A stretch of DNA of 44,376 nucleotides from a virus. Its lineage: Duplodnaviria; Heunggongvirae; Uroviricota; Caudoviricetes. Shown here piece after piece: positions 35,343-37,537 of the stretch. The first letter of the stretch is position 1. The number at the start of each line of letters is the position of its first letter. The stretch is taken from IMG/VR virus record IMGVR_UViG_2541047881_000004, positions 1-44,376 of that record. The stretch is one strand, 5' to 3'. The position numbers and the translations under genes are program-made. Below the pieces are notes generated by a model that worked only from the letters and a program-made list of their open reading frames with translations, was not told where the DNA came from and did not search any database.

Positions 35343-36719
35343 TCATACGTCAGCCCCTTGTGCATATCGTCTGCCACGTGCAGCAGGTGCATTTGATGCT
35401 GTGCAAATCTGTCTGGCTTCATCCTGGTCACATGCAACAAAGTGTCCGTTGCAGAACCGCTGGTAAACCGTACCAAGCGAGCCAAAACGGTTTTTCGTCA
35501 CGATGATTTCAGCAAATGGCGCGGCGCTACTGTTCTCGTCATATACCGCTTCCCGATAGAGCATGATGATTGAGTCTGCGTCCTGTTCAATGCTTCCTGA
35601 ATCACGCAAATCTGCGTTTGTCGGGCGTTTGTTTGGTCGCTTCTCAACATCGCGCGAAAGCTGACTCAGGGAGATAACAGGCGTTTTCAGGTCTTTCGCC
35701 ATCGCCTTCAGGCTTCCGGAGATGTGAGCAATTGCGAGGTCGTTGCGATCTGCTTTCGGCTTCTCAATCAGGCCAAGATAATCCACCATGATTAGTGACA
35801 GGTTTGGATTTTCCTGTTTGTGCCGTTCTGCGATTGAGCGTATTTCTTCGACCGATAACCGCGAGGCATCGACTACCCATACATCCAAATCTGCAAGCTG
35901 ACTCATGCCGTTAGCAACACGTGCCCAGCCTTCGTCATCCATCGCTGCAGGATTTCGCAGCACACTAACCGACATCCTCCCGGCGTTGGCAATGCTTCGC
36001 TCTGCAATCTGCAATGCGCTCATTTCCATTGAGAAAATCAATACCCCGCGCCGGACGTCAGAACCAGGAATAACGCGGCTTGCAACGCCTTCGGCAATCT
36101 TCAGCGCCAGTTCGGTTTTCCCCATACCAGGACGAGCAGCGATTATCACAAGGTCTTCTGCGTTCATCCCTCCGGTGATGGCGTCAAGTTCTTCGATTCC
36201 GGTCTTCAGGGTATCTGACTCTTCTCCGTTCCTCAGACGCCTGTCAAGCGTGTCGGTGTAGTCAGTGATGATTTCCCCTAACCGTACAGGTTTAACCTCG
36301 TCACGGGGCTTTCTGATGGCTGAAAGACGCTTTACAAGTTCATCCATCGCCTGACTCGATGCGTCGATGGTTCCGCTCTGAATTGGTTCACGCATTTCAT
36401 CCATGATTTCCAGCACCAGACGGCGGTGATAGTTATCCGCGACCATTCCGGCATATCCCTTCAGGTTTGCGGCGCTCGGGCAGTTTTTGCTGGTCATCAG
36501 GATTGACGTGAAATGCTCCTCTCCGCACGCCTCGGCAACCATCAGCGCGTCGATTAGGTTTCTGTTTCTCGCCTGCTTCCGGATAACCTCGAAGGCTTTC
36601 CGGTAGAGCGGAATTGAAAACGCTTCCGGCTCCAGCGTTGCCAGAACGTCACTGGCAGTTGGTGTTAATCCACCAATCAGCAGGCCACCGATAACGCTCG
36701 CTTCGATATCCTGTTTCAT
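35343..36719 (-). CDS. Replicative DNA helicase (DnaB family), in the position of lambda P
   Basis: 458 aa with Walker A (AARPGMGKT) and DnaB-like C-terminal domain. Confidence 0.85.
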
Positions 36720-37537
36720 GCAATCCCCCTGTCTGCAAACTTCCCTTCCCGAACTCCCGTTAACGAATCTTCCCTCAGCAGGTAATCAAAATCAGCTGTC
36801 CAGCCCGTGTCGTTGTCTCCGAAGTAAAACGGCTTGGCCTGATGCACAAACGCCCTGACATACGCTCTGAAACCGTCCACGTTTGGCGTTTTCAGTTGCG
36901 GGATGATTTTCTTCAGGCGGCGTTTGCGTTTCTCGTTGACCGCAACAGCGTGTGGCAGTCTGTCACCGACTTCGGTGTTGTAAGCGTTCAGGAAGGATTC
37001 GTAGTCGATTCGTTCTGCCTTGCGACGTTCAGGTTTAACCTGCCCATCGCCGCCCCCGTTAGGGGGTAAGGGGGTATTTGTATTTATTGTCTTTTGTATA
37101 TTGTCTTTTGTGTTTAGCTGACTTGGCTTATACCCATTAGCCGACTTGGCTAATGTTTTATTAGCTGTTTTAGCTAATGTTAAGCTGTCCTGGCTAATCC
37201 ACTGAGAAACCACCTTGTTCACTCCGATTTTCACGCCATCAGCAATGAGGAATTTACGCTCAATAAGCTGGCGCTTGGCAGCGCAAACATGAGTGTGATG
37301 AATACCTGTCATGGCTGCTATCTGCGTGTTTGTGAGTCGATCCATCGGCTTATTGAATCCGTATGTCTTGCGCATGATAGCGAGCATCACCTTCAACTGC
37401 CGGACGGTTAAATCAGCCATCAGCAGACTGTCGGTAATCTCGTTAGCAACGCGCATGAAACCATCTTCGGTATCTGCCACGCGATGCTCCACGACCTCCA
37501 GTTGAGGCCTGTAATCAGCTAACTTAACGACGCCCAT
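36716..37537 (-). CDS. O: Replication initiator O-like protein containing the origin
   Basis: 273 aa; N-terminal region ...[37 protein letters not shown] similar to lambda O; iterons and AT-rich region inside the gene. Confidence 0.85.
37040..37200 (-). repeat. Replication origin: four 19-bp iterons plus adjacent AT-rich region and a G-rich palindrome
   Basis: Iterons TTAGCTGACTTGGCTTATA (37114), TTAGCCGACTTGGCTAATG (37137), TTAGCTGTTTTAGCTAATG (37161), TAAGCTGTCCTGGCTAATC (37181); AT-rich 37076-37113; CCCCCGTTAGGGGGTAAGGGGG at 37051-37075. Confidence 0.8.

Follow-up and report, generated by a model that had tools for sequence, protein, structure and literature searches.

The stretch at 35343-37537 of the window (the window being the whole DNA analysed, 44,376 nucleotides) corresponds to a phage replication module, which with a probability of about 0.93 is of the HK97/P22-type lambdoid kind, in which the initiator is accompanied by the phage's own helicase. 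Over all of its 2,195 bp, the module has approximately 98% nucleotide identity to the genes O (gp54) and P (gp55) of HK97, annotated in that phage as "similar to P22 Gp18" and "similar to DnaB", respectively. This combination of initiator and helicase has already been described and is common, and nothing new is presented by it here. Of the 5,426 complete genomes of E. coli, 725 contain the module.

The replication genes and their prophage setting

The module comprises exactly two overlapping open reading frames (ORFs), the initiator followed by the helicase, both of which are on the minus strand, a point on which the earlier note is corrected. The O-type initiator (273 aa) occupies positions 36716-37537, and the DnaB-family replicative helicase of the P22 gp12/HK97 gp55 type (458 aa) occupies positions 35343-36719. 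The ATG of the helicase overlaps the stop codon of the initiator (ATGA), and the two ORFs are translationally coupled.

The identity of the initiator is established by matches to the Pfam family Phage_rep_O (PF04492; 113.7 bits against a cut-off of 28.7, E = 5.8e-33), to TIGR01610 (97.4 against a cut-off of 45.5), and to PHROG 345, which covers the full length of the protein, residues 1-273 (3.4e-105). Three portions may be distinguished in this protein, that is, the N-terminal origin-binding domain (residues 19-113, as delimited by Phage_rep_O), the linker which carries the origin (residues 114-162), and a C-terminal domain of the gp18 type (residues ~163-273, positions 36719-37060 on the minus strand). 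The similarity to P22 gp18 is of 51% identity over 259 aa, with the C-terminal domain included, whereas the BLASTP similarity to lambda O, of 42% identity, involves only the N-terminal 134 aa and stops at approximately residue 150, the C-terminal half being without a match to the P-binding domain. At the nucleotide level, the gene has 97-100% identity to gene O of HK97. To judge by these sequences, the initiator can be assigned to the P22 gp18/HK97 gp54 subfamily, and not to lambda O proper.

The genes upstream of the module are cII (37718-38014), a 53-aa ORF, cro, and cI, while those downstream are NinB and a methylase of the Dam type, an arrangement which corresponds to the early-right operon of a lambdoid prophage in minus-strand orientation. 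The 53-aa ORF (37524-37685, minus strand; PHROG 1331, 1.4e-37) overlaps the start of the initiator and is the equivalent of HK97 gp53, to which it is 100% identical; it occupies the place of orf48 in P22. At the other end, the module is closed by a ninA-like ORF of 26 aa, recognised from its translation (35266-35346, minus strand), which overlaps the stop codon of the helicase and contains an intrinsic terminator, formed by a stem (35294-35317) followed by a run of T. In P22, ninA and the L2 terminator are annotated at the equivalent place after the helicase.

Two further features of these flanks were observed. The Dam-type N6-adenine methyltransferase of the nin region (PF05869, 1.2e-64; 34305-34892, minus strand) follows directly after NinB (34829-35287, minus strand), and the longest-ORF calls of the two overlap by 64 nt. 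An oop-like antisense RNA unit is represented at 37678-37710 (minus strand) and 37742-37769 (plus strand), with the 33-bp conserved pO/oop 5' block (PMC3349717) present without mismatch and a terminator with a 12-bp stem on the plus strand, within the 3' end of cII. This unit was detected by no Rfam family, and the search of the whole window at the Rfam gathering thresholds returned zero matches.

In the remainder of the window, an identity of approximately 98% to lambda is found for Q, S, R, and the late promoter region, and the resemblance to lambda extends to the terminase, portal, head, and tail genes, while the region of immunity, replication, and nin genes is HK97-like, with Erf/Abc2-type recombination genes at the right end. 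The proposal that the late, lysis, and structural genes are lambda-like, and that the prophage is a mosaic in the style of lambda and P22, was thus borne out. The Rz gene (145 aa, 29566-30003, minus strand) is lambda-like for the first ~80 nt after its overlap with R, after which it presents a deletion of 21 nt in relation to lambda and a strong divergence, which affects its 3' half; the adjacent Q, S, and R are those with ~98% identity to lambda.

The best E. coli matches to positions 1 to ~3900 annotate an ISEc43 element, which is IS66-like, and transposases of IS2 beside the tail-fibre and tail-fibre-assembly genes, so that the prophage may be disrupted at its left end. The presence of these insertions, together with the fact that no integrase is reached at the right end of the window, would fit a module which persists as a non-functional relic in a decaying prophage, but this is considered unlikely, given that both replication ORFs are of full length and translationally coupled, that their identity to the corresponding ORFs of HK97, a plaque-forming phage, is 97-100%, and that the iterons described below are 100% identical to their HK97 counterparts.

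The putative origin within the initiator gene

The linker of the initiator contains four putative iterons of 19 bp with dyad symmetry, ATTAGC-N7-GCTAAT, at 37113-37198, as the earlier note had indicated when it described an O-like initiator with an internal origin. In the order of the gene, and as read on the minus strand, these are iteron 1 (37180-37198, ATTAGCCAGGACAGCTTAA), iteron 2 (37160-37178, ATTAGCTAAAACAGCTAAT), iteron 3 (37136-37154, ATTAGCCAAGTCGGCTAAT), and iteron 4 (37113-37131, ATAAGCCAAGTCAGCTAAA), with start-to-start spacings of 20, 24, and 23 bp. The 6-bp arms of iterons 2 and 3 match the consensus perfectly, and the other two iterons each have two mismatches. Over the whole window, the count of this pattern is only weakly above chance (4 against 1.42 expected, with four or more found in 4 of 100 shuffles), although in 2000 simulations of the window with a first-order Markov model, three or more hits within 100 bp were never obtained, and the clustering of the iterons is not due to chance. 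Folding of the iteron block is likewise much more stable than that of its shuffled versions (z = -4.6 and -5.9).

As the iterons are entirely coding (residues 114-142), part of their conservation is that of the protein, which has a repeated LAK/ANK peptide at this point. Given this, the four repeats might be seen as a by-product of the peptide repeat, with the real origin located elsewhere in the prophage, a reading to which the marginal excess of the pattern over the whole window would lend itself, but which is highly improbable. The spacing and position of the repeats match those of the lambda iterons ITN1-4 and of the annotated origin of P22, an A+T-rich tract follows immediately, as in lambda, the clustering was not reproduced in the simulations, and a repeated peptide gives no reason for perfect inverted arms of 6 bp. 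Among 27 distinct blocks of HK97-type iterons from viral contigs, moreover, the variable columns were concentrated in the 7-bp spacers (14 of 28 columns, against 3 of 48 in the 6-bp arms; Fisher p = 2e-5), that is, the dyad arms are conserved and the spacers vary. The interpretation of the repeats as a mere coding artefact was rejected on their spacing, arm conservation, and clustering. The variability of the spacers and not of the arms would fit the recognition of the arms by the initiator, with coding constraints also contributing, and, on the basis of this anatomy and of the known systems of lambda and P22, the HK97-type iterons would function as an origin.

Directly downstream of iteron 4, in the direction of the gene, is an A+T-rich tract of 38 bp (37075-37112), presumed to be the DNA-unwinding element. 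The A+T content of this tract is 79%, where that of the window is 48%, and its strand asymmetry is marked, as the coding strand has 25 A but only 5 T; it is identical in the origins of P22 and HK97. It is followed by a C5/G5 inverted repeat (37053-37074; plus strand CCCCCGTTAGGGGGTAAGGGGG, minus strand CCCCCTTACCCCCTAACGGGGG), which codes for the linker peptide PLPPNGG. The order in the direction of the gene is thus iterons, A+T-rich tract, and palindrome, so that, of the flanks which had been described for the iterons, the A+T-rich tract is indeed downstream, whereas the palindrome is not on the other side, but beyond the tract on the same downstream side. The palindrome had also been described as unusual, a view which was abandoned, as P22 keeps it with one base changed and its 5-bp hairpin has no extra stability in comparison with shuffled sequences (z = -0.01 and -0.74). 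It is instead a conserved part of the origin and linker of the P22/HK97 group.

The helicase and the C-terminal domain of the initiator

The second gene of the module presents both domains of the DnaB family, the N-terminal (PF00772; 49.8 bits against a cut-off of 23, E = 3.9e-13) and the C-terminal (DnaB_C, PF03796; 264.8 bits against a cut-off of 27, E = 9.3e-79), and also matches PHROG 19. Its product is 90% identical to P22 gp12, without gaps, and aligns with E. coli DnaB (PDB 6bbm) over residues 5-428 (E = 7.4e-67), although the first ~28 residues of the E. coli protein are absent. The residue-by-residue alignment to 6bbm demonstrates that Walker A (ARPGMGKT), Walker B (IMVDYLG), and the SGSIEQDAD/arginine-finger region are retained. 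The BLASTP comparison with lambda P returned no significant similarity (best E = 0.43), and no AAA+ domain of the DnaC type was found among the Pfam matches, so that a loader identity, whether P-like or DnaC-like, is ruled out, and the gene encodes a DnaB-type helicase in place of a lambda P loader, as had been claimed.

The scores of this protein are below the cut-offs of both the cellular DnaB equivalog TIGR00665 (339.3 against 385.25) and the phage_DnaB model TIGR03600 (316 against 498.65), which indicates a member of the family that is an orthologue of neither. The helicase therefore represents a separate phage lineage within the DnaB family, outside both curated subgroups. The possibility that the protein is a decoy or adaptor for the capture of host DnaB or DnaC, the unwinding itself being left to host DnaB, can be set aside as most improbable, for while the missing N-terminal residues, the scores below the equivalog cut-offs, and a loading step left unexplained by any visible loader gene would be compatible with it, the Walker A, Walker B, and SGSIEQDAD/arginine-finger region are intact and P22 gp12, its 90% identical relative, is reported to be a helicase of the DnaB type which acts together with the primase DnaG (Wickner 1984, as cited in PMC8022706). 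The formation of hexamers, ATPase activity, and 5'-3' unwinding are likewise reported for P22 gp12 (Wickner 1984, as cited in PMC8022706).

By analogy with the biology of lambda and P22 (PMC8022706, PMC3349717), a plausible course of initiation can be proposed for a module of the initiator plus helicase kind. If the homology to lambda O and P22 gp18/gp12 is followed, dimers of the N-terminal domain of the initiator would bind the four dyad iterons within their own gene, to form a nucleoprotein complex by which the neighbouring A+T-rich tract would be strained and opened. The gp18-type C-terminal domain would then recruit the hexameric DnaB-family helicase of the phage directly onto the opened DNA, after which the host primase and Pol III would take over, with replication being independent of host DnaB and of any loader of the P/DnaC type.

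The C-terminal domain which would perform this recruitment has an invariant motif, AKPFYFG-N--GW-A--D, and the PHROG profiles indicate that the same type of domain is also found in several families of phage initiators with other N-termini. It matched no Pfam family at E <= 5, and the PDB sequence search with the initiator returned nothing at E <= 1. The single-sequence AlphaFold prediction of the whole initiator was unusable (pLDDT 38). The homologue search with the C-terminal domain recovered 32 proteins, mostly fragmentary and near-identical, and a shallow alignment of 13 rows provided a moderate model of the domain (pLDDT 70, pTM 0.61). This model matched no PDB fold (best E = 4.3), and its matches in BFVD were exclusively to uncharacterised phage replication or HTH proteins (best E = 3e-4). 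The region at residues ~163-273 is an uncharacterised domain which probably contacts the helicase.

The 39-mer formed by the A+T-rich tract and its extension into the first C run has exact matches in at least 120 viral contigs, and 122 usable copies of the tract among the matches listed were typed according to their iterons and C-terminal half. The combination of HK97-type iterons with an HK97-type C-terminal half accounts for 79 of these 122 copies, that of P22-type iterons and N-terminal domain with an HK97-type C-terminal half for 28, and P22 types on both sides for 11, while in the other four, the C-terminal half fits neither type. The reciprocal combination, of HK97-type iterons with a P22-type C-terminal half, was not seen among the matches listed. 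In the recombinant P22/HK97 initiator genes, the crossover falls in the identical A+T-rich tract, and these joins suggest that the tract acts as a natural recombination joint inside the initiator gene.

It is conceivable, albeit with somewhat less than an even chance, that the C-terminal domain is a self-contained loader of the DnaB ring with an unsolved fold, and that the A+T-rich tract is the joint at which origin specificity is swapped independently of the pair formed by loader and helicase. Such a reading is allowed by the lack of PDB matches to either sequence or fold, by the recurrence of the domain in other phage replication proteins, and by the natural recombinants. If this were the case, the role of lambda P or DnaC would be filled by the initiator itself, and origin specificity, in the form of the N-terminal domain and its iterons, could be exchanged between phages apart from the loader and helicase. 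The question of how an O-type initiator loads a DnaB-type ring without a dedicated loader is a long-standing one for P22 and HK97, and is not newly exposed by this prophage. The module matters little beyond its correct annotation, according to which the prophage should need neither the DnaB nor the DnaC of its host for replication, and has an origin specificity of the HK97 type, rather than that of lambda or P22.

Comparison with HK97, P22, and lambda

The phages mEp213, HK446, and HK544 and the Stx phages 1717, 2851, and YYZ-2008 also carry the module, with an identity of ~98% for mEp213, HK446, and the Stx phages. The iterons, the A+T-rich tract, and the palindrome of HK97 are 100% identical to those of the window, and the gp53 ORF upstream is also shared. 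For the DNA of the N-terminal domain of the initiator, the identity to HK97 is 99%, and for that of the helicase, 97-98%. Downstream, by contrast, the helicase of HK97 is followed by gp56-gp60, where the window has the P22-like junction of ninA, terminator, and ninB, and the structural genes of HK97 are unlike the lambda-like genes of the window. After the stop codon of the helicase, the identity is 94% to P22 and 61% to HK97, which places a mosaic boundary right at this stop codon, with a junction that is P22-like and not HK97-like.

The genes 18 and 12 of P22 have the same order as in the window and encode proteins of 271 and 458 aa, the corresponding sizes in the window being 273 and 458 aa. 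The annotated rep_origin of P22 (32840-32984) is in register with the iterons and the A+T-rich tract of the window, and four repeats of ~20 bp in P22 gene 18 have been taken as iterons (PMC8022706). The identity to P22 varies considerably along the module, being 34% for the gp53-like ORF, 52% for the DNA of the N-terminal domain of the initiator, 50% for the iterons, 94% for the A+T-rich tract and palindrome together, and 79-92% for the DNA of the helicase. The P22 iterons have the arms TTTACC...GGTAAA, in place of the ATTAGC...GCTAAT of the window, and these differences in the iterons and in the N-terminal domain (~50% DNA identity) imply a different origin specificity. The N-terminal domain and the iterons thus change together, while the half of the origin presumed to be unwound is constant, which is the pattern expected if the specificity and its sites co-vary, and conforms to the classical design of the lambdoid origin.

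In lambda, the origin is likewise inside the initiator gene, with four dyad iterons followed by an A+T-rich tract and then by an inverted repeat downstream, and the spacing of ITN1-4 (39034, 39054, 39078, and 39101) is identical to that of the window, at 20, 24, and 23 bp. The N-terminal domain of lambda O is homologous to that of the window initiator (the 42% over 134 aa given above), whereas its C-terminal domain is unrelated, and the partner gene encodes the loader P in lambda, but a helicase in the window, where, with the helicase in place of P, and to reason from P22, host DnaB should not be needed. A lambda hybrid in which the P22 genes 18 and 12 replace O and P is viable (PMC3349717), and this λ(18,12)P22 hybrid demonstrates that a module of this kind is functional together with the late genes of lambda (PMC3349717).
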